A stretch of 64,000 nt of DNA from Flavobacteriales bacterium (lineage in GTDB: Bacteria > Bacteroidota > Bacteroidia > Flavobacteriales_F > PHOS-HE28): positions 287,522 through 351,521 of the forward strand of contig JADJXH010000004.1 in the NCBI GenBank assembly GCA_016715895.1, written 5' to 3'. The position numbers were made by a program, and so were the translations under genes. Of the stretch, positions 2,463 through 53,654 are shown piece after piece. Each line of letters begins with the position of its first letter. Within the stretch, counting starts at the first letter, position 1. The notes beneath the pieces were generated by a model, which saw only the letters and a list, made by a program, of their open reading frames with translations, was not told the origin of the DNA and did no database searches.

Positions 2463-4301
2463 TCAAGCTAACTTTCGTTGCCCGAGGGGCACGGTGAAGC
2501 GCAGATGCGTGCCCCGCCCGACGGGAACGAGCTCCACGCCGCCTCCGATGCCGGCCATGCGCTTGCGCATGTTGGGCAGGCCATTGCCACTGGAGCCGTT
2601 CAACCCCGACAGCCCGCGGCCGTCATCGATCACCTCGATGATCAGGCCCTCTGACCACCGCAGCACCAGGGTCACCCGGGTGGCATCCGCATGCTTCACG
2701 ATGTTGTGCAGCGCCTCCTTCACGACCAGGAAACAATTGCGTCGCTCGGTGGTGCCCACGGTCAGGGACGGCCAGGGACCGTCGGCCTTCACGTCGAGCG
2801 GGATGCCGTGCTCCGCGAGGTAGGTGCGCGCGTGGTTGTTGATGTAGGCCACGAGGTCGGCGAGCTCGCCCTGGTCGTCCTGCAGGGCCCAGATGATGTG
2901 GCGCATGCTGGCCATGAGCTCCTCGGCGCGGCGGGCCTGTTCGCGGAGGAGCGCCTCCCGGTCGATTCGGCTCCCGGGCATCAGGGCCATCTCGCTGCGC
3001 AGCTTCAACCCGCTGAGGCCCACACCAAGGTCGTCGTGCAGATCGCGGCCCACCTGTTCGCGCACCCGCAGCTCGGCGATGGTCCGGTTCTGCCGTTCAC
3101 GCATCAATTCGCTCTCCGCAAGACGACGACGCGTCTTCTGCCTGCCGGAGACGAGCAGGAAGATGACCACGATCACCCCCAGGAGCAGCCCGCCGATGGC
3201 CAGGATGAAGAGGCGGACGACGCGCGCGCGATCCAGCTCGGCGGCGATGCGCTGGCGCTCCAGACGCTCCACCTCCAGGTCGTTGTCCGCGCGGAGCAGC
3301 TCGTCCTGTGCGGCCAGGCCCGACCGGATGTTGCGGGCGGTGATGGTGCTGTCGATGCGGTGCCAGTCCGCCAGATCGGCCAGGGCCCCCTGGACATCCC
3401 CCAGCTGCCTCAGCGTGGCGCTGGCCACACGAGCGAAGTTGCGCTGGGTCACCAGCCCGATGCCGGAGCGGTTCTCCAACAGGTAGGCGCGGGCGCGTTC
3501 CAATGCACGGAGCGCATCCTCCCGCCTCGCGGCGACGGCCAGCGCCCGTGCGCGCCCCACCAGCGCATCCACGCCGATGTCGTGATCGGCGTGTTCGGCG
3601 GCGATCGCGAAGGAGCGGTCATACCGGTGCAGGGCGCTGTCGGCGCGATGCCGCTGCACGGCCAGGTTGCCAAGGCCCCACCAGGCCACGGCGGCGGCAC
3701 GGCCCACCCCGGCCTCCTCGGCCAGGGCCAGCGAACGGCGCAGATGCCATTCGGCACTGCCATGCGCGCCCAGGGTGGTGAGGTAGGTGCCGAGGTTGCC
3801 ATGGATGTGGTGCAGCTCGGTGACGGGATAACGCGCTTCGGGCCGCTGCGGGAACAGCCGCAGGGCCGCCCTGAGGTAGGGCAGGGCGAGCCGGTTGTCC
3901 TGGATGTTCTCGTGCAGCAGGCCCTTCATGTTGAGGACGTTCGCCATCAGCGTGCTGTCGCCGAGCCGGTCGGCCAGCGCTCCGCACGCATCAAGGTCCC
4001 GCATGGCCTCGTTGAAGAGGCCTTCGTAGTAAAGCACCTCGGCGCGATAGCTGAGCAGGTAACAGCGCGCCTCCTCATCGGCCTGCGTGCGAACCAGGGC
4101 CTCGTTGATCAAGCGCAGCGCCGAGTCCGCGTGGAAGGCGTCCATCTGCAGCAGGATGCCCTCCATCCTGCGGTGGAGGTCGGCATCGGGAAAGGGCGGG
4201 AGCTGGCGCATGGTGCGGCCCACGCGCTGCTGCGCACCAAGCGGTGGGACCATGCCGATCAGCACGGCCACGCACATGCAGGCCCTGACGAACGCCGTCA
4301 T
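2463..4301 (-). CDS. Sensor histidine kinase (TPR-like periplasmic region, TM, HisKA_3, HATPase_c)
   Basis: Signal peptide and TPR-like helical repeats. TM segment 'VVRLFILAIGGLLLGVIVVIFLLV'. HisKA_3 box 'DLHDDLGVGLSGLKLRSEMA'. ATPase G-boxes 'VVKEALHNIVKHA...IDDGRGL...GNGLPNMRKRMAGIGG'. Overlaps the upstream RR gene by 4 nt. Confidence 0.85.
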   Translation of the reverse strand: MTAFVRACMCVAVLIGMVPPLGAQQRVGRTMRQLPPFPDADLHRRMEGILLQMDAFHADSALRLINEALVRTQADEEARCYLLSYRAEVLYYEGLFNEAMRDLDACGALADRLGDSTLMANVLNMKGLLHENIQDNRLALPYLRAALRLFPQRPEARYPVTELHHIHGNLGTYLTTLGAHGSAEWHLRRSLALAEEAGVGRAAAVAWWGLGNLAVQRHRADSALHRYDRSFAIAAEHADHDIGVDALVGRARALAVAARREDALRALERARAYLLENRSGIGLVTQRNFARVASATLRQLGDVQGALADLADWHRIDSTITARNIRSGLAAQDELLRADNDLEVERLERQRIAAELDRARVVRLFILAIGGLLLGVIVVIFLLVSGRQKTRRRLAESELMRERQNRTIAELRVREQVGRDLHDDLGVGLSGLKLRSEMALMPGSRIDREALLREQARRAEELMASMRHIIWALQDDQGELADLVAYINNHARTYLAEHGIPLDVKADGPWPSLTVGTTERRNCFLVVKEALHNIVKHADATRVTLVLRWSEGLIIEVIDDGRGLSGLNGSSGNGLPNMRKRMAGIGGGVELVPVGRGTHLRFTVPLGQRKLA

Positions 4302-8106: not shown

Positions 8107-9093
8107 ATGTTGACCGACCGGCACGGCCGCACGCACCGCAGCCTGCGCATCAGCATCGTGGACAAGTGCGACCTGCGCTGCACCTACTGCATGCCGGAGG
8201 ATCAACATTTCCTGAAGCGCGAGGAGTTGATGACCCGCGCGGAGATCCTCACCATCGCACGGCTCTTCGTGGAGCGCTATGGGATCGCCAAGATCCGGCT
8301 CACCGGAGGCGAACCACTGGTGCGACCCGATGTGGTGGACATCGTGCGCGACCTTTCGCAGCTGCCGGTGAAGCTGGGACTCACCACCAACGCGCTCAGT
8401 CTGCACAAGCACCTGGATGGGTTGATGGATGCCGGTCTGAAGGGGGTGAACGTCAGCCTGGACACCTTCGATGCGGATCGCTTCCGGAAGATCGCGCGAC
8501 GCGATGGTTTCGACACGGTGCATGCCAACATCCTGCTCGCCCTGCGGAAGGGCCTCCGGGTAAAAGTGAACATGGTGGTGATGCGCGGGGTGAACGACGA
8601 CGAGCTCCTGCGCTTCGTGGAGCTCACCCGCGACCACGACCTGCACGTCCGTTTCATCGAGTTCATGCCCTTTGCGGGCAATCAATGGGGCCGCGATCGC
8701 GTGTACACCTACGCCGAGATGCTGGGCCGCATTGGCAGTGCGCATGCCTTCGAGAAACTGAACGACGACCCGCACAGCACGGCCAAGGCCTACCGGGTAC
8801 CGGGCTGGCCCGGCACCTTCGCGGTGATCAGCACGGTGACGGAGCCCTTCTGCGGCACGTGTGACCGGCTGCGGGTGACCGCGGAGGGCAGGATGCGCAA
8901 CTGCCTCTTTGCCCGCGAGGAGACCGACCTGCTCTCCGCCCTGCGCCGTGGAGAGGACATCGCGCCCTTGATCGAGGCGAATGTGCTGGCCAAGCACGCC
9001 ATGCTCGGCGGCCTGCCGCCCTTCAGGCCCGAGAAGCAGGAGGAGGTCCTGCACGACCTGAGCGAACGGCCGATGGTGGCGATCGGGGGATAG
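8107..9093 (+). CDS. moaA: GTP 3',8-cyclase MoaA (radical SAM; Moco biosynthesis step 1)
   Basis: Motifs 'ISIVDKCDLRCTYCMP' (CxxxCxxC radical-SAM cluster) and C-terminal 'FCGTCDRLRVTAEGRMRNCLF' (second cluster). 328 aa, typical MoaA size. Confidence 0.9.
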   Translation: MLTDRHGRTHRSLRISIVDKCDLRCTYCMPEDQHFLKREELMTRAEILTIARLFVERYGIAKIRLTGGEPLVRPDVVDIVRDLSQLPVKLGLTTNALSLHKHLDGLMDAGLKGVNVSLDTFDADRFRKIARRDGFDTVHANILLALRKGLRVKVNMVVMRGVNDDELLRFVELTRDHDLHVRFIEFMPFAGNQWGRDRVYTYAEMLGRIGSAHAFEKLNDDPHSTAKAYRVPGWPGTFAVISTVTEPFCGTCDRLRVTAEGRMRNCLFAREETDLLSALRRGEDIAPLIEANVLAKHAMLGGLPPFRPEKQEEVLHDLSERPMVAIGG

Positions 9094-9095
9094 TT

Positions 9096-9131
9096 CATGT
9101 GCACATGTGCTCATGAGCACATGTGCACATG
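9096..9131. terminator. Perfect 36-bp palindrome between the convergent moaA and NAP-like genes (candidate bidirectional terminator or protein-binding site)
   Basis: CATGTGCACATGTGCTCATGAGCACATGTGCACATG is its own reverse complement. It lies exactly between the moaA stop (9091-9093) and the minus-strand gene stop (9134-9136). Confidence 0.5.
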
Positions 9132-9133
9132 CC

Positions 9134-10156
9134 CTAGAGTTCCTGCTCGTAGTAGATCTTGTAGAACTTCCGGCCCTGGTCATCCACCCCCCGCTCGATC
9201 TTGTTGCGGTCGCCGTGGATGTAGATGTGGAAGTTCTTGTCCAGTTTCAGCACGCTCTTGAACACACGGGCCTGCTTCTTCACGGCGTCGGCGCTGATGG
9301 CGAAGCGGTCCTCCAGGTCCACGGCGCGCTCCTCCTGGAAGCGGTCGCCGAAGCGCTCGAAGGAGCCGATCACCTCCTCGCTTTGGAACACCTCACGGGC
9401 GAAGGAGCTCCGGTCGAACTCGGTGTTGTCCTTGAAGTACTGGACGGAGCGGTTCAGCAGGTCGATCTGGTCGGCCTTGGGGATCTCGTAGTCCTGCGGC
9501 AGTTGCTCGGTGATGAACGAGCGCGTCATCTCCAGCAGGTTATTGGTGCTGTTCACGTGGTCCTGTTTGGCACGGAGCCCGGCGAAGGCCTGCTGCCAGA
9601 ACCCGCTGCGCGGATCGTCATCGATCACCAGCACGGTGTGCTCACCCGGGGTGAAGAGCACCAGCAGGGCCTGGTCCGGCCTGCGCCCCCCCAGCCCGCG
9701 TTTGAGGCGCATGCCGATGTGGCCCCCACTGACCTTGCTCTCCAGGAAGACCTCCTTGTCGTCGAACTTGAGGATGCCCAGCGCATCATGCACCGCCCCG
9801 GCCAGCTCCACGGCGTGGAAGCGGACGACGAAGAGGTCACCGCCGCGCACCTCATGCTCCGCGGCGGTGTCGATGAGGAGCTTGGCGATGGCCCGGGACA
9901 CCCCGACCAGGTCCTTCGCCTTCGCCGCCTTGGCGCACAGGGCCTGAAGGGCATTGCCAGCACCCTGTGCTCCGTCGCCGAAGGTGTGGGTGACGGCCAC
10001 CGAGGCGAAGGGCTTCAGGAAGAGGCGGCGCAGGAACTCCTGCTCCTCGGGCCCCTGCAGCACGGCGCTCACGTCGGAGAGCACGCTGGGCGATCCATCC
10101 GTGCCCACCCGGTGCAGCACCAATTCCTCCACCATCGCCTCCTTGCCGTTGATCAT
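9134..10156 (-). CDS. Nucleoid-associated protein, NdpA/YejK-like (PF04245-type)
   Basis: 340 aa. Layout resembles NdpA ('ELVLHRVGT' near the N-terminus, 'GGDLFVVRFH' block, charged C-terminal half). The family call is from memory of YejK, not from a search. Confidence 0.45.
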   Translation of the reverse strand: MINGKEAMVEELVLHRVGTDGSPSVLSDVSAVLQGPEEQEFLRRLFLKPFASVAVTHTFGDGAQGAGNALQALCAKAAKAKDLVGVSRAIAKLLIDTAAEHEVRGGDLFVVRFHAVELAGAVHDALGILKFDDKEVFLESKVSGGHIGMRLKRGLGGRRPDQALLVLFTPGEHTVLVIDDDPRSGFWQQAFAGLRAKQDHVNSTNNLLEMTRSFITEQLPQDYEIPKADQIDLLNRSVQYFKDNTEFDRSSFAREVFQSEEVIGSFERFGDRFQEERAVDLEDRFAISADAVKKQARVFKSVLKLDKNFHIYIHGDRNKIERGVDDQGRKFYKIYYEQEL

Positions 10157-11213: not shown

Positions 11214-12131
11214 TCACATCCCATGCCTGAACGCATGTTCCTGCACCTTCACCACATGAAGCACGAACGGAAAAAGCGCATCCATCGTCTCCTGCGCCCC
11301 ACGCGTGGATCCCGGCAGGGTGATCACCAGCGTTCTTCCGATCATGCCGGCGATGCCCCGGCTCATCATCGCCCAGGGCATGCGCTCCTGGCCATAGCTG
11401 CGCGCGGCCTCCATGATACCGGGTACCTCCCGGTCCATCAGGGGTGCGATGGCCTCGGGCGTGCGGTCGCGGGGCGAGAGGCCCGTGCCGCCTGTGGTGA
11501 GGATGAGGTCCAGGCCCTCGGTTGACCATGCGTTCACCCTGTTGGCGATCTGCTCAGGCTCGTCAGCGCACACGGCCTGCACGGGCACCTCAACACCCAG
11601 CTGCGCCAAGCGTTCCACGATCGCCGCGCCCGCCTTGTCCTCCTTCTTCCCACCGGCCACCCCATCGCTGATCACCAGCACGGCCGCCTTCACGGGCGTG
11701 TCGAAGCGGTCCTTCCAGTCGCTCTTGCCGCCCTTCTTCTCCAGCAGCCGGATGCCCGCGATCACCACGCCCTTGTCGATGGGCTTGAGCATGTCGTAGA
11801 TGGTGAGGGCCGCCACGCTGGCACCGTGCATGGCCTCCACCTCCACCCCGGTGCGGTAGATGGTGCGCACCCGCATGGTGACGACGATCTCCATCGCCCC
11901 CACCTCGAACGTGCACGCCGCATGCTCGATGGGCAGCGGATGGCAATCGGGGATCAGCTCGTGGGTCTTCTTTACGCCGAACAAGGCCGCCACGCGGGCG
12001 CTCTCCAGCACATCGCCCTTGGGCACCTGCTTCCCGATAACTGCGGCGATCGTCGCAGAATTGGAAACGGTCACCAGCGCGGTCGCCGTGGCCTCGCGCA
12101 GGGTGGTGGGCTTGTGGGTGATGTCGATCAT
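11214..12131 (-). CDS. moaC: Bifunctional MoaC (cyclic pyranopterin monophosphate synthase) / MogA-MoaB-like molybdopterin adenylyltransferase fusion
   Basis: N-terminal half has MoaC motifs 'KGDVLESARVAALFGVKKTHELIPDCHPLP...TGVEVEAMHGASVAALTIYDMLK'. C-terminal half has MogA/MoaB motifs 'AAVLVISDGVAGG...LILTTGGTGLSPRD...LPGSTRGAQE'. Start placed at the internal ATG (MIDITHK); the ORF track begins 23 codons earlier. Confidence 0.8.
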   Translation of the reverse strand: MIDITHKPTTLREATATALVTVSNSATIAAVIGKQVPKGDVLESARVAALFGVKKTHELIPDCHPLPIEHAACTFEVGAMEIVVTMRVRTIYRTGVEVEAMHGASVAALTIYDMLKPIDKGVVIAGIRLLEKKGGKSDWKDRFDTPVKAAVLVISDGVAGGKKEDKAGAAIVERLAQLGVEVPVQAVCADEPEQIANRVNAWSTEGLDLILTTGGTGLSPRDRTPEAIAPLMDREVPGIMEAARSYGQERMPWAMMSRGIAGMIGRTLVITLPGSTRGAQETMDALFPFVLHVVKVQEHAFRHGM

Positions 12132-12212
12132 GAATGCAGGCGAATAGCGAATGGTCATTGGAGAATGGAACCAGGATCGGCACCATTCGCTAATCGCCAA
12201 TGACCATTCACC

Positions 12213-12716
12213 CTATCCATTGGATTTCCAAATATGCCCACCACCCTCCACGATCTCCTTCCCGAAGATGGGCAGCTCGGCCTTGATGCGGTCCACCACC
12301 CAGGCCACGGCCTCGCGCGCGGCAGCACGATGCGGTGCGCTGGCGAAGACCATGAAGCACAGCTCGCCGGCCTTGATGGTGCCCAGGCTGTGGTGCACAT
12401 GCAGACAGGTGATGTCCGGCCATCGGGCGAAGGCCACCTCGCGGATGTCCGTCATGCGCTCCAGGGCCATGTCCCTGTATGCGGTGTACTCGATGGCGAC
12501 CACCGTTGCCGCAGGCGGATGACCATCCGCCCCTGCAACGTGGTCCGCGCGCACCTGGCCCAGGAAGATCTCGTGGGCACCGATGTCCGTGCGGGTGGCA
12601 TGCCTGGCGATGCTCGTGGCGATGAAGGCCGGTTCGATCGGCCCCTCCACGAAGATGTCCCGCTTCTTATGCGCGGATCTTGTCGCCTCGGGATCCATCG
12701 GTGTCATCTGTGCCAT
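12213..12716 (-). CDS. moaE: Molybdopterin synthase catalytic subunit MoaE
   Basis: 'LHVHHSLGTIKAGELCFMVFASAPHRAAAREA' matches the MoaE signature region. About 160 aa. Immediately downstream of moaD. Confidence 0.8.
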   Translation of the reverse strand: MAQMTPMDPEATRSAHKKRDIFVEGPIEPAFIATSIARHATRTDIGAHEIFLGQVRADHVAGADGHPPAATVVAIEYTAYRDMALERMTDIREVAFARWPDITCLHVHHSLGTIKAGELCFMVFASAPHRAAAREAVAWVVDRIKAELPIFGKEIVEGGGHIWKSNG

Positions 12717-47427: not shown

Positions 47428-48177
47428 TCACTCCTTCGTCACGCTCGCCGCCAGGTATTCCCTGTTCATGCGGGCGATGTGCTCCAAGCTGATGCCCTTG
47501 GGGCATTCCACCTCGCAGGCGCCGGTGTTGCTGCAGTTGCCGAAGCCCTCCTTGTCCATCTGGTCCACCATGGCCAGCACGCGGCGCTTGGCCTCGGGAC
47601 GACCCTGGGGCAGCAGGGCGAACTGGCTCACCTTGGCGGCCACGAAGAGCATGGCGCTGCCGTTGGGGCAGGTGGCCACGCAGGCCCCACAGCCGATGCA
47701 GGTAGCGGCGTCGAAGGCCTTATCGGCATCATCCTTCGGGATGGGCACCGCGTTGCCGTCCACCAGGTTCCCGCTGGTGTTCACACTGACGAAACCGCCG
47801 GCGGCCTGGATGCGATCGAAGGACCCGCGGTTCACGGCCAGGTCCTTGATCACGGGGAAGGCCGCGCTGCGCCAAGGCTCGATGAATATGGTGTCCCCAT
47901 CCTTGAACTTGCGCATGTGCAACTGGCAGGTGGTGATGCCGCGGCCCGGGCCGTGGGGTTCACCATTGATGAACAGGCTGCACATGCCACAGATGCCCTC
48001 GCGGCAGTCGTGGTCGAAGGCGACCGGGTCCTTGCCCTCGCGGATCAGCTGGTCGTTCAGCACGTCCAGCATCTCCAGGAAGGACATGTCCTCGGACACG
48101 TCGTTCACGGGATAGGTCTCCATGCGGCCCTTGTCGTTGGGACCGTTCTGGCGCCAGATCTTCAGTGTCAGTTTCAT
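47428..48177 (-). CDS. sdhB: Succinate dehydrogenase/fumarate reductase iron-sulfur subunit
   Basis: 2Fe-2S and 4Fe-4S/3Fe-4S Cys clusters: '[17 protein letters not shown]', '[15 protein letters not shown]', '[15 protein letters not shown]'. Confidence 0.9.
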
Positions 48178-48207
48178 GGTGAATGGTCAATGGTGAATGG
48201 CGAATGG
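48178..48207. repeat. Heptad-repeat arm (GGTGAATGG TCAATGG TGAATGG CGAATGG), inverted partner of 48699..48727
   Basis: Starts 1 nt after the sdhB ATG and ends 7 nt before the stop of the four-helix-bundle gene. Built from 7-mer units xGAATGG. Confidence 0.8.
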
Positions 48208-48214
48208 GCAGGCC

Positions 48215-48679
48215 TCATCTGCCATCACGGTCCTTGCGAAGTGATTCGTAACGGGCCTCGATCTTCACGATCATTTTGTTCAACATCCGCGCTATCGAGG
48301 TGAGGCGAGATGTGATCGGCGTAGGGTCCAAGCGGAGCTTGCGGTATAGCCGACGAGCAAGTTCCAGATGTGTTTCGAGCTCGTACAGTGAACCACGCGT
48401 GATCCGGAGGTAACTGAGCAGTTGGCGATCACTACTGGTGCCGCGGCCCCATCCTTCTGCGATGTTGGCAGGCATGGAAACCGCCGCCCGGCACATTTGG
48501 CTGACCAGGCCGAAACGCTCCTCGTTGGGCAGCAGCGCCGCGAACTCATACACCATCTCTGTGGTGTCCATGGAGTGTTGCCAGATGATGAGGTCACGGT
48601 AGCTGCTGATGGACCCATAGGGCTCGTTCGGCTCCTCCACGCAGAGTTCATTGAAGGCATCCAATCGTTCCTGGCTCAT
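48215..48679 (-). CDS. Four-helix-bundle protein (23S rRNA intervening-sequence-protein family, TIGR02436/PF05635-like)
   Basis: 154 aa from MSQERLDAF. All-helical, with 'ANIAEGWGR' and 'LRITRGSLYELETHLELA' motifs typical of this family. Visibly lower GC than the flanking sdh genes. The 89-codon N-terminal extension in the ORF track is rejected. Confidence 0.7.
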   Translation of the reverse strand: MSQERLDAFNELCVEEPNEPYGSISSYRDLIIWQHSMDTTEMVYEFAALLPNEERFGLVSQMCRAAVSMPANIAEGWGRGTSSDRQLLSYLRITRGSLYELETHLELARRLYRKLRLDPTPITSRLTSIARMLNKMIVKIEARYESLRKDRDGR

Positions 48680-48698
48680 GTCAGCTCCGGGTATTTCC

Positions 48699-48727
48699 CA
48701 TTCACCATTGACCTTTCGCCATTCACC
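48699..48727. repeat. Heptad-repeat arm (reverse-complement orientation: CCATTCACC ATTGACC TTTCGCC ATTCACC)
   Basis: Overlaps the sdhA stop codon by 1 nt. Its reverse complement GGTGAATGG CGAAAGG TCAATGG TGAATGG uses the same units as the left arm in permuted order. Confidence 0.8.
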
Positions 48728-50742
48728 TACTTGTAGCTCCGCTGCGTCAGTTTCACCTCCTCGAAGGTCAGCGGCTCCTTGTGCAGCTCGGCCTTGCCGG
48801 CCTCGCCCAGCCACTCCCAGGCGGCCACGTAGGCGAAGTTGGCGTCGTCGCGCTTGGCCTCGCCCTGCTGCGGCCCCTCCATCTCCTGGTACTCCTCGCG
48901 GAAATGGCCGCCACAACTCTCGTTGCGGTGCAGTGCATCCATGCACATCAGCTCACCCAGCTCCAGGAAGTCGGCCACGCGACCGGCCTTCTCCAGTTCC
49001 TGGTTGAACTCGTCGGCCTTGCCGGGTACGCGCACATCCTTCCAGAACTCTTCACGGATCTGGCGGATCTCCTGGATGGCCTCCTTCAGGCCCTGCTCGT
49101 TGCGCGCCATGCCGCACTTGTCCCACATCACCTTGCCCAGTCGGCGGTGGAACTCATCCACCGGCTTGGTGCCCTTGTTGTTGATGAAGTGGTTGATGCG
49201 GTCGGTCACCTCCTTCTCGGCGGCGTCGAACTCGGGACGCTTGGTGTCGATGGGGCCGGTGCGGATGTCGTCGGCCAGGTAATCGCCCACGGTGTAGGGG
49301 ATCACGAAGTAGCCGTCGGCCAGGCCCTGCATCAGCGCTGAGGCACCGAGGCGATTGGCGCCGTGGTCGCTGAAGTTGGCCTCGCCCAGCGCGAAGAGGC
49401 CCGGTACGGTGGTCTGCAGGTTGTAATCCACCCACAGGCCGCCCATGGTGTAGTGCACGGCGGGGTAGATCTTCATCGGCTCCTTATAGGGGTTCTCGCC
49501 GACGATGTTCTCGTACATGTCGAAGAGGTTCCCGTACTTCTCGCTCACGACCGCCTCGCCCAGCTCGCGGATCTTCTCCTTGCTGGGGTTCTCCAGCTTC
49601 AGGATGTTCGCCTGGAGCTTGCCGTAGCGCTCGATGGCCGCGCTGAAGTCCAGGTAAACGGCCTCACCGGTCTTGTTCACGCCGAAGCCCGCATCGCAAC
49701 GCTCCTTGGCGGCACGGCTGGCCACGTCACGCGGTACCAGGTTGCCGAAAGCCGGGTAGCGGCGCTCCAGGTAGTAGTCGCGGTCGGCCTCGGGGATGTC
49801 GCTGCCCTTCTTCTTCCCTTCGCGGATGGCCTTGGCATCCTCCAACTTGGCCGGCACCCAGATGCGGCCGTCGTTGCGGAGCGACTCCGACATCAGCGTG
49901 AGCTTGCTCTGGTGCGTGCCGCTCACCGGAATGCAGGTGGGGTGGATCTGCGTGTAGCAGGGGTTGCCGAAGAAGGCCCCGCGCTTGTGCGCCTTCCACG
50001 CGGCGGTGACGTTGCTGCCCATGGCGTTCGTGCTCAGGAAGAACACGTTGCCGTAGCCGCCGGTGCACAGGAGCACCGCGTGCGCGCCGTGCCGCTCGAT
50101 CTCGCCGGTGATCAGGTTGCGGGCGATGATGCCGCGCGCCTTGCCGTCCACGACCACCACATCGAGCATCTCGTGTCGGTCGTACATCTTCACCGTGCCC
50201 TTGCCCACCTGGCGCATCAGCGCGCTGTAGGCACCGAGCAGCAGCTGCTGGCCGGTCTGTCCGCGGGCATAGAAGGTGCGGCTCACCTGCACCCCGCCGA
50301 AGGAGCGGTTGTCCAGCAGTCCGCCGTAGTCGCGGGCGAAGGGCACTCCCTGCGCGACGCACTGGTCGATGATGTTCGCGCTCACCTCGGCCAGGCGGTA
50401 CACATTGGCCTCGCGGGCCCGGTAATCGCCGCCCTTCACGGTGTCGTAGAACAGACGGTACACACTGTCACCGTCGTTCATGTAGTTCTTGGCGGCGTTG
50501 ATACCCCCCTGCGCGGCGATGCTGTGGGCGCGGCGGGCGCTGTCCTGGAAGCAGAAGGCCTTCACGTTGTAGCCCATCTCCGCCAACGAGGCCGCGGCGG
50601 CACCACCGGCCAGGCCGGTGCCCACCACGATGACATCGATGCGGCGCTTGTTCGCAGGCGCCACGATGCGCATGTGCCCCTTGTGGTAGGTCCACTTCTT
50701 GTCGATGGGACCGGGAGGGATCTTGCTGTCGAGCTTGCTCAT
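48727..50742 (-). CDS. sdhA: Succinate dehydrogenase/fumarate reductase flavoprotein subunit
   Basis: FAD-binding '[21 protein letters not shown]'. Covalent-FAD histidine context '[15 protein letters not shown]'. 671 aa. Confidence 0.9.
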
Positions 50743-50770: not shown

Positions 50771-51448
50771 TCAACCGGGGAAAGCGAACATCCACACCGG
50801 GATGAGGGCGAAGAGGATGGGCACCACCACGCCGAAGAACACCCCCACGTTCTTGATGATCGGGGTGTAGCGCGGATGGTTCAGGCCCAGGCTCTGGAAG
50901 GCGCTCTGGAACCCGTGCAGCAGGTGGAAGCCCAGCACGGCCATGGCCACCACATAGAACAGCACGTACAGGGGCTGCTGGAAGGCGGCCGCCACCACGG
51001 TGAAGAGGTCGGTGTTGCCCTCGGCATCCATCGGCAGGCCACCCCAGTGCATCTCGTACCAGAAGTGCTTCATGTGCATCACGATGAACACCAGCAGCAA
51101 GGTGCCCAACAGCGCCATCTGGCCGCTGTACCAGGTGCGGTTGGCGGAAGGCTTCTCCTTCACGTAACGGGTTGGACGGGCCTGGCGGTTCTGCATGGCC
51201 AGCAGGATGCCGTCAAAGGCGTGGAACAGGATGCTGAAGTAGAGCAGGTAGCTTACCACCTTGATCAACGGGAAGGTGGTCATGAACTTGGCGTAGGCGT
51301 TGAACTTCAGCCTGCCTTCCGGGCTGGCGTCCAGCAACTGCAGGTTGCCGGCCAGATGGATCACCAGGAACAGGCAAAGGAAAAGGCCCGTGAGGGCCAT
51401 CCAATACTTCTTCGTGAGGGAGGAACCGAGGAGGGCTGTTCGTGCCAT
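50771..51448 (-). CDS. sdhC: Succinate dehydrogenase cytochrome b558-type membrane subunit
   Basis: Five TM helices with conserved His ligands ('HLAGNLQLL', 'HAFDGILLA', 'HMKHFW', '[10 protein letters not shown]'). Immediately upstream of sdhA. Confidence 0.8.
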
Positions 51449-51595: not shown

Positions 51596-52018
51596 TTACT
51601 GACCTGGGTAGGCCTTCCGCGTGGCCGCGATGGACCGCTTGATCATCGCCTTCAACACCCTCAGGTCGATGTCGGCCAGGCGCTTCACGTACAAGCAGCC
51701 CTTCGTGGCCTTGTGCTTCCCCAGTTTGGCCAGCACCTCCGGCTCCAAGGCCTCCTGGCCCAGGTAGATGACCAGCTCCGGCTTGCGCGGGCTGAAGGCC
51801 GCGAGGGGCGCGCTGCCCGAATGACCGCTGGCGTAAGTGTAGTGGTAGGTTCCGAAGCCGATGATTGACGGGCCGTACATGTGGGGCTGCTCGCCGGTCA
51901 GCTCCTGCATCAGATTCACAAGCACCCGGCTGTCATCGCGCATCTCCTCCTTGGGGTGCTTGTCGATGAAAGCCTCCACATTAGCGGTGGTGGCCTGGGT
52001 CTTGTTGGCCTTCGCCAT
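51596..52018 (-). CDS. DUF1801 (YdhG-like) domain protein
   Basis: 140 aa. 'VEAFIDKHPKEEMRDDSRVLVNLMQELTGEQPHMYGPSIIGFG' and 'GCLYVKRLADIDLRVLKAMI' match the DUF1801 layout. Confidence 0.55.
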   Translation of the reverse strand: MAKANKTQATTANVEAFIDKHPKEEMRDDSRVLVNLMQELTGEQPHMYGPSIIGFGTYHYTYASGHSGSAPLAAFSPRKPELVIYLGQEALEPEVLAKLGKHKATKGCLYVKRLADIDLRVLKAMIKRSIAATRKAYPGQ

Positions 52019-52538: not shown

Positions 52539-53654
52539 TTGATCCGGCATTCATGATCTGGACTCAGGCTGCGTAACGAACGGTGTCTTTCTGGAACAGT
52601 GCGATGATGCGCTTGGGGTGTCGCTGGAGGGAACGCAGGAAGCGTGATGTGAAGAGTTCAAGCTGCCCCTTCTTGCGTGCTGGAGCGTGCTTGGTGACGG
52701 CATCCTTCAGCGCTGCGTTCGCTACTTCCACCGGGTTGAGTTCGGGCGAATAACTCGGCAGGTGGAAGACCTCGATGCTCTCCAGATGCTCCTCGAGCCA
52801 TTCCTTGACCGGCTTGCTGTGGTGGACCCTGAGGTTGTCCAAGATCAGGAACACCTTGTTGTCGCTATCCTTGACCAGTCTTCTCAGAAAGCCGATCAGG
52901 ATGCTGCTGTTCAGTGCGCCCTTGAAGACCATCCAGCGCATTTCCCCGCGATTGGTCACCGTGGAGATCACCGAACAGCCGTGGCGGTTGTGGTTCACCC
53001 TGACCACGGGAGTGTGGCCTCGCAGGGAGTAGCTGCGCCCGCGAACGTCATCACTGCGCAGACCGGTCTCATCGCCCCAGTGGATCACGGCACCTTCAGC
53101 CTTGGCACGTGCACGGATGGCCGGATAATCCTCGTGCAGCCACTTGCGCACCGCCTCCGGTCGCTGCTCGTAGGCCTTGCGCAGTGGCTTCTGCGGCGTA
53201 AATCCCCAGCGCTCCAGATAGAGCCCCACACTGCGTATGGCCAGCTTGCGGTCGTAGCGCCGCTCGATCAGCTCGCGCACCGCTTGCCGGTTCCACAACG
53301 CATAAGGCATTTTCAACTGATCGGGCGTTCTGTCACGGATCAGCCGTTGTGTCTCCTTCTCCTGCTCACTTGTCAGGATGCGTCCCTTGCCCACCGGGCG
53401 ACCGGTCTTCCACACACGAATGGCCTTCCAGCCACCGGCCTTGTACCGTTGCCAGGCTTCGTTCACCGTGTTGCGGGACATGCCACAGAGTTCGGCCGTT
53501 TCCTTCAGGCCCATGCCCTTGAGCCTGCATTGCACCGCCTGCCTACGACGCTCATTGAGCTCGGGCATCGACAGCTTCCTGGAGTCGTTCTCGCGCATGC
53601 CTCGGCAAGATCCACAGATCGTGCCGATCGTCCGCTATATCGATGCCGGATCAA
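52539..53654 (-). mobile_element. IS630-family insertion sequence (1,116 bp) with 12-bp terminal inverted repeats and TA target-site duplication
   Basis: Ends TTGATCCGGCAT (52539..52550) and ATGCCGGATCAA (53643..53654). Each is flanked by TA (52537-38 and 53655-56), the hallmark IS630/Tc1 target duplication. Interior is a single DDE transposase gene. Lower GC than the flanks. Confidence 0.75.
52564..53598 (-). CDS. IS630-family transposase (N-terminal HTH + DDE_3 domain)
   Basis: 344 aa. HTH 'ELCGMSRNTVNEAWQRYKAGG'. DDE_3 motifs 'VIHWGDETGLRSDD', 'FLILDNLRVHHSKPVKEWL', 'FHLPSYSPELNPVEVANAALK'. Confidence 0.85.
   Translation of the reverse strand: MRENDSRKLSMPELNERRRQAVQCRLKGMGLKETAELCGMSRNTVNEAWQRYKAGGWKAIRVWKTGRPVGKGRILTSEQEKETQRLIRDRTPDQLKMPYALWNRQAVRELIERRYDRKLAIRSVGLYLERWGFTPQKPLRKAYEQRPEAVRKWLHEDYPAIRARAKAEGAVIHWGDETGLRSDDVRGRSYSLRGHTPVVRVNHNRHGCSVISTVTNRGEMRWMVFKGALNSSILIGFLRRLVKDSDNKVFLILDNLRVHHSKPVKEWLEEHLESIEVFHLPSYSPELNPVEVANAALKDAVTKHAPARKKGQLELFTSRFLRSLQRHPKRIIALFQKDTVRYAA

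Follow-up and report, generated by a model that had tools for sequence, protein, structure and literature searches.

What is a gene of the S23p protein family doing between two genes of a succinate dehydrogenase operon, and what are the repeat arms that enclose it? The four-helix-bundle (4HB) proteins of this family were first found in the intervening sequences (IVSs) of ribosomal RNA. The question is raised by a 64,000-nt stretch of DNA from a Flavobacteriales bacterium (assembly GCA_016715895.1, contig JADJXH010000004.1, positions 287,522-351,521 of the forward strand), referred to here as the window. An original prediction had placed a 154-aa 4HB open reading frame (ORF) at 48215..48679, between inverted arms built of heptads in the space between sdhA and sdhB, and had proposed that the arms pair in the sdhCAB transcript as an IVS-like element. 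Beyond that prediction, the locus is one member of a phylum-spanning class, its arms are constrained beyond pairing, and a gene-less copy lies at 12.1 kb of the window. The 4HB gene and its inverted heptad arms are a module travelling together across phyla.

The armed gene between sdhA and sdhB

The operon and its insert are laid out as follows, in the order of transcription.

50771..51448, minus strand: the operon's first gene, probably sdhC (cytochrome b subunit); weak PF01127 match, position as in the called genes of relatives
48727..50742, minus strand: sdhA (flavoprotein subunit); PF00890 (FAD_binding_2) and PF02910 (Succ_DH_flav_C), and its translation; stop TAG at 48729-48727
48697..48727, minus strand: 5' arm in transcript sense, G-rich, 31 nt; GGTGAATGG CGAAAGG TCAATGG TGAATGG G
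48680..48696, minus strand: spacer from the 5' arm to the 4HB ATG, 17 nt, containing GGAG; unconserved in orthologs
48215..48679, minus strand: 4HB ORF, 154 aa; PF05635 / TIGR02436, S23p / IVS protein family
48209..48214, minus strand: spacer from the 4HB stop to the 3' arm, 6 nt
48178..48208, minus strand: 3' arm in transcript sense, C-rich, 31 nt; CCCATTCG CCATTCA CCATTGA CCATTCA CC
47428..48177, minus strand: sdhB (iron-sulfur subunit); PF13085 (Fer2_3) and Fer4 families, and its translation; ATG at 48177-48175

The sdhA stop, the G-rich arm, the 4HB ORF, the C-rich arm and the sdhB ATG thus follow one another on the minus strand, and the 549 nt from the sdhA stop to the sdhB start are wholly occupied by arms, spacers and ORF. 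The predicted ORF coordinates hold, and both boundaries are as tight as had been claimed: the first base of the 5' arm is the G of the sdhA TAG, and the 3' arm ends at position -1 of the sdhB ATG. The lower GC content predicted for the insert is also seen, with a fall from ~65% to ~57% across it.

The ORF product is a member of PF05635/TIGR02436, the IVS-protein family to which it had been assigned. It scores above the cut-offs of both models (PF05635, 23S_rRNA_IVP: E=2e-27, 95.9 bits against 33.8; TIGR02436, 'four helix bundle protein': 95.4 bits against 24), and it retrieves the PDB entries 2GSC (XCC0516; E=2e-18 from the sequence alone, 1e-39 from a profile) and 2RLD (3e-10). The NIAEG and ELET hallmark motifs are invariant in the alignment made here. 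A single-sequence AlphaFold2 model was all-helical, with a mean predicted local distance difference test score (pLDDT) of 54.7; it was too poor for a fold search and was not used. PADLOC returned zero defence-system hits, and a phmmer search found no second 4HB gene in the window.

The arms that bracket this gene are indeed inverted and built of heptads. They are 84% complementary over 31 nt and can pair in the further registers that had been anticipated (87% over 30 nt, 89% over 19 nt). Their heptad pattern gives 15 matches against 5.0 +/- 2.4 in shuffled sequences, none of 100 shuffles reaching 15. The arm pair is the top-scoring inverted repeat of the whole 64-kb window, and 48176-48207 is the sole period-7 tandem array in it (4.6 copies by Tandem Repeats Finder). 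The window's heptads follow the pattern T-R-G-T-G-A-W and are mostly of the TGG variant; TAG units occur in the orthologs and in the gene-less hairpin described below. Each array has at least three units, the two form an inverted pair between co-oriented ORFs, and the G-rich strand follows the stop codon, as is typical of inverted tandem heptanucleotide repeats. The arm-arm duplex is calculated at -45 kcal/mol (z = -6.8), and in the folded 586-nt sense RNA the arms are paired in both the minimum free energy and the centroid structures, in agreement with the proposed stem. Rfam covariance models gave zero matches at E<=1 for 47900-49000 and for 12000-12350, where the gene-less copy lies.

How could such an insert be tolerated? 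It is an apparently promoterless IVS-type cassette, and we see about an even chance that its arms pair in the sdhCAB RNA and that the stem is cut by RNase III. The cassette would be transcribed within sdhCAB, and its arms would form an imperfect duplex of 27-31 bp, with the 4HB ORF looped out and with the sdhA stop and the sdhB start brought together at its base. RNase III would cleave this duplex, just as it cuts the homologous stem in the rRNA IVSs of Coxiella and Leptospira, and would thereby free the 4HB mRNA and separate sdhCA from sdhB mRNA. An essential operon could then accept the insertion, and expression of the 4HB gene would require no promoter within the cassette. A standing stem would sequester the sdhB initiation region, in the 3' arm, and block initiation; the sdhB leader would be freed by the cut, or by a ribosome that terminates at the sdhA TAG and opens the base of the stem, and sdhB expression would thus stay coupled to upstream events. 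Pairing is supported by complementarity that is kept in 16 loci while heptad sequence and copy number change, as set out below. The promoterless reading is supported by the 17 nt between arm and ATG and by a scan for sigma-70 promoters and intrinsic terminators: it found no sigma-70-like promoter match and no intrinsic terminator (GC-rich hairpin and T run) in or at the element, Bacteroidota promoters being outside the scan.

Insertion of the cassette as one unit, and its vertical descent

The order sdhA-4HB-sdhB is found again in a high-GC clade of Flavobacteriales, in 16 genomes that each stand for a species (L001-L016; uncultured Flavobacteriales and Bacteroidota, from a scan with one genome per species). 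Compared with the window, SdhA is 82-97% and the 4HB protein 68-99% identical in these loci, and the 4HB ORF is intact in 16/16. Because the median pairwise dN/dS is 0.09 while dS is near saturation in most comparisons, the 4HB protein must be functional and the insertion old.

Arms are present in all 16 orthologous genomes and pair in each. Duplex energies were computed for the window and 15 orthologs, and 15 of these 16 lie between -40 and -107 kcal/mol, the value for L013 being unusable because an ORF end was misread; L004 and L016 have a perfect 30-bp arm duplex. Near relatives carry the heptad pair GGTGAAT/ATTCACC and a deeper subclade (L009, L011, L013 and L015) GGTGATT/AATCACC, a change that occurs on both arms. 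The number of upstream heptads ranges from 4 to ~18, heptad variants follow one another along the 5' arm in an order that is reshuffled among genomes, and the spacers next to the arms are unconserved. The 3' arm is the more conserved of the two: 30-31/31 nt are identical (97-100%) in L001-L008 and L016, where four-fold sites of sdhB are 54-92% identical.

Two members of the deeper subclade have expanded arms. The 5' arm has grown to ~14-18 heptads in L011 (2875-3000) and L013 (2835-3000), and the long downstream spacers (in L011 at 3460-3730) hold several separate C-rich heptad blocks, so that multiple alternative stems are possible in these loci. L013 also has a second 4HB cassette, at 270-830 between sdhC and sdhA, with a different protein and GTTACGG/CCGTAAC heptads. 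Since its two cassettes differ in both protein and heptads, the heptad type follows the element and not the genome.

Four relatives with SdhB 81-84% identical to that of the window lack the insert, and their sdhA-sdhB spacers, of 7, 18, 24 and 30 nt, contain zero heptads. As these gene-less junctions are also without arms, the arms belong to the inserted gene. A neighbour-joining tree of SdhB groups the genomes that carry the orthologous cassette into a single clade. Together these comparisons show that the cassette was inserted whole into the short sdhA-sdhB spacer of the clade's ancestor and has been vertically inherited since. One of the empty junctions, in L109 (2990-3001, 7-nt spacer), is nested beside the deeper carrier subclade in the SdhB tree; it may reflect a precise loss of the whole cassette, for which a neighbour-joining tree of 250 aa is weak evidence.

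In another reading the stem acts mainly, and without being processed, as a long-range translational coupler that brings sdhA stop and sdhB start together: a terminating ribosome would melt its base and hand over to sdhB across the 550-nt insert. The base does abut the sdhA stop and the sdhB start, the more conserved 3' arm is the sdhB leader, and coupling of this kind has been proposed for the short tandemly repeated repetitive (STRR) hairpins between cyanobacterial hupS and hupL (PMC2670836). However, insertion into a short spacer already accounts for the geometry, nothing separates coupling from the processing model, and the occurrence of the same arms in rRNA IVSs would be left unexplained. 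We regard this reading as quite improbable.

In other Bacteroidota the history of the junction differs. The 4HB proteins at sdhA-sdhB there are 43% identical, although SdhA is 66-79% identical in the three loci with the full gene; their best matches are 4HBs from non-sdh sites, and in the SdhB tree they are interspersed with empty sites. We accordingly rejected one ancient sdh insertion shared by all Bacteroidota, as the other sdh-located 4HBs are non-orthologous, and for the same reason the junction must have been colonised repeatedly.

Might the arms belong to a mobile element at the level of DNA, as its terminal inverted repeats, with the RNA stem incidental and the gene-less copies akin to MITEs (miniature inverted-repeat transposable elements)? 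Non-orthologous 4HBs at one and the same junction amid empty sites would fit such an element, as would the occurrence of filled and empty sites at both sdhA-sdhB and moaE-moaC, the possible precise loss in L109, the variable heptad copy number and the lack of a G-U bias among arm mismatches; a transposon origin of IVSs was also proposed in the older literature. Nonetheless, the cassette yielded PF05635 as its sole Pfam match and no domain of a transposase, recombinase or nuclease. No recognisable target-site duplication was seen between filled and empty junctions, which are too diverged for certainty, and the cassette has remained stable in one clade beyond the saturation of synonymous sites. 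A pure DNA element would moreover need neither the co-orientation with the operon that hosts it nor the fixed G-rich/C-rich polarity. We therefore think it unlikely that the arms are primarily transposon ends, and similarly unlikely that DNA hairpin or cruciform processes, with slippage, are what upholds their complementarity.

One build across the family, with and without the gene

The association of gene and arms extends far beyond the sdh operon. A metagenome scan returned at least 600 matching stretches, and among 600 of them 587 encode a relative. From a profile scan of metagenome contigs we took 80 further 4HB loci, ~40-50% identical to the query, and together with eight distant genome hits the metagenome loci gave 75 independent loci that could be analysed. 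Duplex energies of 240-nt flanks were uninformative, long loose duplexes being found everywhere, and were replaced by ungapped inverted-repeat scores, compared with 324 shifted controls from the same loci. The flank inverted repeat exceeds the 95th percentile of the controls in 85% of the 75 loci (median score 16 vs 8), a rate that applies to best matches to a profile made from arm-bearing genes, with Avd genes of the diversity-generating retroelement (DGR) type outside the sample.

The arms share their dimensions as well as their presence. A clear tandem period, where there is one, equals 7 in 30/33 flanks upstream and in 33/39 downstream, and most of the others have a period of 8. In the 64 loci whose arms are clear, arm length has a median of 29 nt; read in the direction of the 4HB gene, 57 have a G-rich 5' arm and 55 a C-rich 3' arm. 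In 54/64 an ORF of at least 100 aa on the same strand stops ahead of the 5' arm, at a median distance of 3 nt, and in 48/63 another such ORF begins past the 3' arm, at a median distance of 14 nt. Host junctions, recognised by reading the sequences, include sdhA|sdhB in distant Bacteroidota, nuoC|nuoD, nuoK|nuoL and carA|carB; cyanobacterial plasmids show the same build.

Several individual loci illustrate the range of hosts. In four Bacteroidia (L018, L020 and L022 at ~2900-3500, L019 at ~350-950) the cassette lies within metH, at a domain boundary, and the split gene is read as two ORFs, the upstream one stopping inside the arm and the new ATG lying past the 3' arm. Five separate metagenome contigs (L045, L048, L061, L063 and L070) have 4HB cassettes at nuoC-nuoD, which looks like another preferred site; some of these have GTGAATGG-type heptads like those of the window, in unrelated hosts. 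In Anabaena sp. 90 plasmid pANA02 (L108, 1150-2000) a cassette whose arms are CAGGTGA/TCACCTG separates cas6 from cas4 in a type I-D CRISPR-Cas operon, and cassettes in cas operons may explain the appearance of the family in surveys of cas-associated genes, including those of metagenomes. The 4HB flanks of L083 (~2400-2500 and ~2840-2900) are (ACTGGGG)n / (CCCCAGT)n arms, the classical cyanobacterial STRR1 heptamer.

We asked whether the G-rich arm might fold into a G-quadruplex, the structure suggested for Xanthomonas GGGAATC heptamers; Rehm et al. observed such structures in vitro with GGG-containing heptamers (PMC4692102). In the sdh arms there are only GG runs, enough for no more than two tetrads, the C-rich arm is fully complementary and a competitor for pairing, and many heptads of the family are G-poor (e.g. 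TAGCTTC, GATATCA). A quadruplex is therefore a very improbable basis for the arms.

An idea that the heptads provide translation stops in all frames was also tried, 7 being coprime with 3 and TAG or TGA occurring within many heptads. It was rejected: three-frame stops are found in 23/64 of the 5' arms and 20/64 of the 3' arms, without enrichment.

The window itself contains the arms a second time, without the gene:

12139..12212, minus strand: gene-less heptad hairpin; 5' arm 12183-12212, 14-nt loop 12169-12182, 3' arm 12139-12168

This hairpin occupies the moaE-moaC junction exactly, an 81-nt spacer that runs from the moaE stop (12215-12213) to the start of a moaC fusion (ATG at 12131-12129), both on the minus strand. 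In the sense direction it reads GGTGAATGG TCATTGG CGATTAG CGAATGG, the 14-nt loop, and CCATTCT CCAATGA CCATTCG CTATTCGCC; it has the heptad type and polarity of the sdh cassette, and the ORF is absent. Three relatives have it at the same junction (MoaE 90%, 82% and 77% identical), and it is missing from the L012 genome, where the moaE-moaC spacer is 6 nt. The 16-bp lower stem is kept in 4/4 carriers, with two compensatory double changes in L116. As the hairpin is conserved among species, arms can endure long with no gene inside them. The tie between arms and inserted gene that the original prediction had drawn consequently stands at sdh, where empty sites are armless, and is too narrow as a general statement, since the gene-less moa hairpin persists.

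When the consensus 5'-arm heptads of 54 independent elements are set in a common phase, position 1 is A in 44/55, position 2 is G in 51/55 and position 7 is a pyrimidine in 50/55. A circular YAG is present in 39/54 heptads, compared with 15.5 expected from composition-preserving shuffles (maximum 24 in 1000), and the phased heptads hold 4.79 bits of information in total against 3.63 +/- 0.13. Within arms, variability is lowest at the AG positions (4-12%, against ~20% at positions 4-6). The YAG core, the fixed polarity and the conservation of the 3' arm together suggest that the sequence is read, and not just its complementarity.

A candidate reader is the 4HB protein itself. TRAP and HutP are ring proteins that read NAG triplets in RNA, and the UAG-N4 of HutP has a period of 7. 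By a working analogy with them, of an oligomeric ring and a short core (here YAG) at a fixed period, the heptad arrays would primarily be putative binding sites of a 4HB pentamer, which would read the core every 7 nt or grip the stem in the manner of Avd. We hold this to be a rather unlikely primary role, and it may be a rival of stem formation or a complement to it, as the two are compatible. It is also on the doubtful side that such a pentamer targets the arms of its own cassette and, in trans, gene-less hairpins like that at moaE-moaC, controlling processing, downstream translation or its own synthesis.

The evidence for this reading is varied. Besides the YAG core, the low variability of its AG positions and the G-rich 5' arm in most loci, the 3' arm is conserved well above the neutral expectation, and the moa hairpin shares the heptad type of the sdh cassette while the two proteins of L013 have different heptads. 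The YAG core, the polarity and the gene-less copies would be best explained in this way. The 4HB core is basic (pI 9.7; family median 9.2), the N-terminal 27-aa extension being acidic. The homologs 2GSC and 2RLD each have five chains in their PDB entries, and the 2GSC protein is described in the literature as a homopentamer. Avd, another pentamer, binds an 11-bp RNA stem-loop with all five protomers and with flipped-out bases between them (bioRxiv 10.1101/2023.10.23.563531). On the other hand, heptads vary widely among elements despite the invariant protein motifs, the window's own heptads are mostly TGG and not YAG, and a typical arm has ~4 heptads and not 5. The comparison with HutP and TRAP is moreover an analogy drawn from general knowledge, between proteins of unrelated fold and family.

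The window has other features of note. At 9091-9136 on the minus strand a perfect palindrome of CATGTGCA octamers directly follows a TAG stop (9136-9134) and is followed by an ATG (...CACATGAAC...) that is a possible start of the next gene on the minus strand; the arrangement resembles a third junction of the stop-hairpin-start kind, with another repeat type. The low-GC stretches near sdh, at 52564-53598 on the minus strand and at 51596-52018, contain an IS630-type transposase (DDE_3 and HTH) and a DUF1801 gene. The original prediction had counted the 4HB insert as one of three small low-GC insertions within ~8 kb; the other low-GC stretches, with an IS630-type DDE transposase and the DUF1801 gene, are unrelated to the cassette.

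Known elements and the S23p family

The closest known counterparts are the ORF-bearing 23S rRNA IVSs of Coxiella burnetii and Leptospira, with which the sdh cassette shares the protein family, an enclosing stem of ~28-30 bp, tandem heptamers of variable number in the arm region, the lack of a promoter and the location in a host RNA. The Coxiella IVS has an S23p 4HB ORF within terminal inverted repeats that form a 28-bp stem, and tandem GACAGAT heptamers whose number varies among strains; RNase III cuts it mid-stem in vitro, with ends mapped by rapid amplification of cDNA ends (Warrier et al., PMC4990558). The IVS-like architecture of the original prediction thus has a close match. Unlike these IVSs, the cassette is hosted by a polycistronic mRNA (sdhCAB) and flanked by sdhA and sdhB, not by an rRNA helix, and whereas excision by RNase III is demonstrated for Coxiella it is proposed here by homology. 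An exact search for the 14-nt sarcin-ricin loop motif of 23S rRNA found it in 0/108 loci. The element therefore resembles an rRNA IVS but fails its defining location, and is an IVS-type 4HB cassette at an mRNA operon junction.

Several points weigh against processing of the stem as the full account of the cassette. The tight fit of stop to arm and arm to start follows automatically from insertion into a 7-30-nt spacer, and is therefore not independent evidence of function. In Coxiella, S23p is probably not produced and its ORF is decaying (PMC4990558); an apparently untranslated, decaying ORF is not equivalent to one under strong purifying selection, as here. Among arm mismatches, G-U pairs (65) are not in excess over A-C pairs (61, p=0.79), so that selection on sense-RNA pairing is undetectable position by position, and the missing bias suits DNA-level or strand-neutral upkeep as well as it suits RNA pairing. 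Finally, the conservation of the 3' arm and the YAG core exceed the needs of pairing and point to an additional, sequence-specific reader.

The arms without the gene also have precedents. Repeats of the STRR type in Calothrix PCC 7601 were reportedly described in 1990. That report, represented here by its citation in PMC4692102, stands beside work on STRRs in Nostoc and Calothrix, which include the hupS-hupL hairpins of unknown function (PMC2670836). The GGGAATC repeats of Xanthomonas, read as G-quadruplexes, occur as 70 inverted pairs with the G-rich strand just past stop codons (PMC4692102), and the paired repeats of Geobacter metallireducens have been read as sites of unidentified global regulators (PMC2700814). 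Like the arms described here, these are inverted pairs of at least 3-5 tandem 7-nt units between co-oriented ORFs, G-rich after the stop and C-rich before the next start, and conserved in position while variable in length. They were reported as repeats alone, and were interpreted as G-quadruplexes, transcript stabilisers or regulator sites, whereas the sdh arms enclose a 4HB gene, the sole gene-less copy here being that at moaE-moaC. The 4HB family goes unmentioned in PMC2670836, PMC4692102 and PMC2700814. We found no paper that links 4HB genes generally to flanking heptad arms, in a search mostly outside subscription journals, so that a prior description is possible.

Two other classes of element bear comparison. 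Avd of DGRs is described in the literature as a pentameric, positively charged, S23-like barrel. The sdh element is not a DGR because it lacks a reverse transcriptase and a template/variable repeat: neither is adjacent, and the neighbours are sdhA and sdhB. The sequence match to Avd is weak (PHROG, E=0.007), and a PDB sequence search with the 4HB family profile did not retrieve Avd. Pairs of autonomous elements and MITEs, and repetitive extragenic palindromic (REP) hairpins, resemble the heptad elements in that ORF-bearing and ORF-less copies share inverted arms and occupy intergenic sites patchily. They differ in that the heptad elements have no transposase or RAYT-type enzyme, are built of tandem heptads and not of a unique terminal repeat, and show strict polarity with respect to transcription.

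To our knowledge, the S23p or '23S rRNA IVS protein' family has no known function outside DGR Avd, and is represented by two crystal structures. It is tempting to consider, if only tentatively, that the 4HB pentamer and the inverted YAG-heptad arrays are one widespread two-part system, in which autonomous cassettes are accompanied by many more gene-less hairpins that they serve in trans. With a similar degree of doubt, such a system might have colonised operon junctions and the tips of rRNA helices alike, its arms folding out of the host RNA and acting as a ligation-free, RNase III-dependent 'operon intron' and its protein reading the heptads. Were this so, the STRRs, the Xanthomonas GGGAATC repeats, the Geobacter sites and the ORF-bearing rRNA IVSs would share one origin and one function, and the very large S23p family would gain a first function.

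For annotation, the cassettes matter because they split operons, and even genes: gene and arms sit precisely between cistrons of core operons, in sdh, nuo, carAB, the split metH and cas. The wider result is the family-level module of a gene and inverted YAG-heptad arms across phyla, which may unify several unexplained repeat families. One answer may cover the function of S23p, the intergenic heptad repeats that have so far received ad hoc readings, and the origin of ORF-bearing IVSs.

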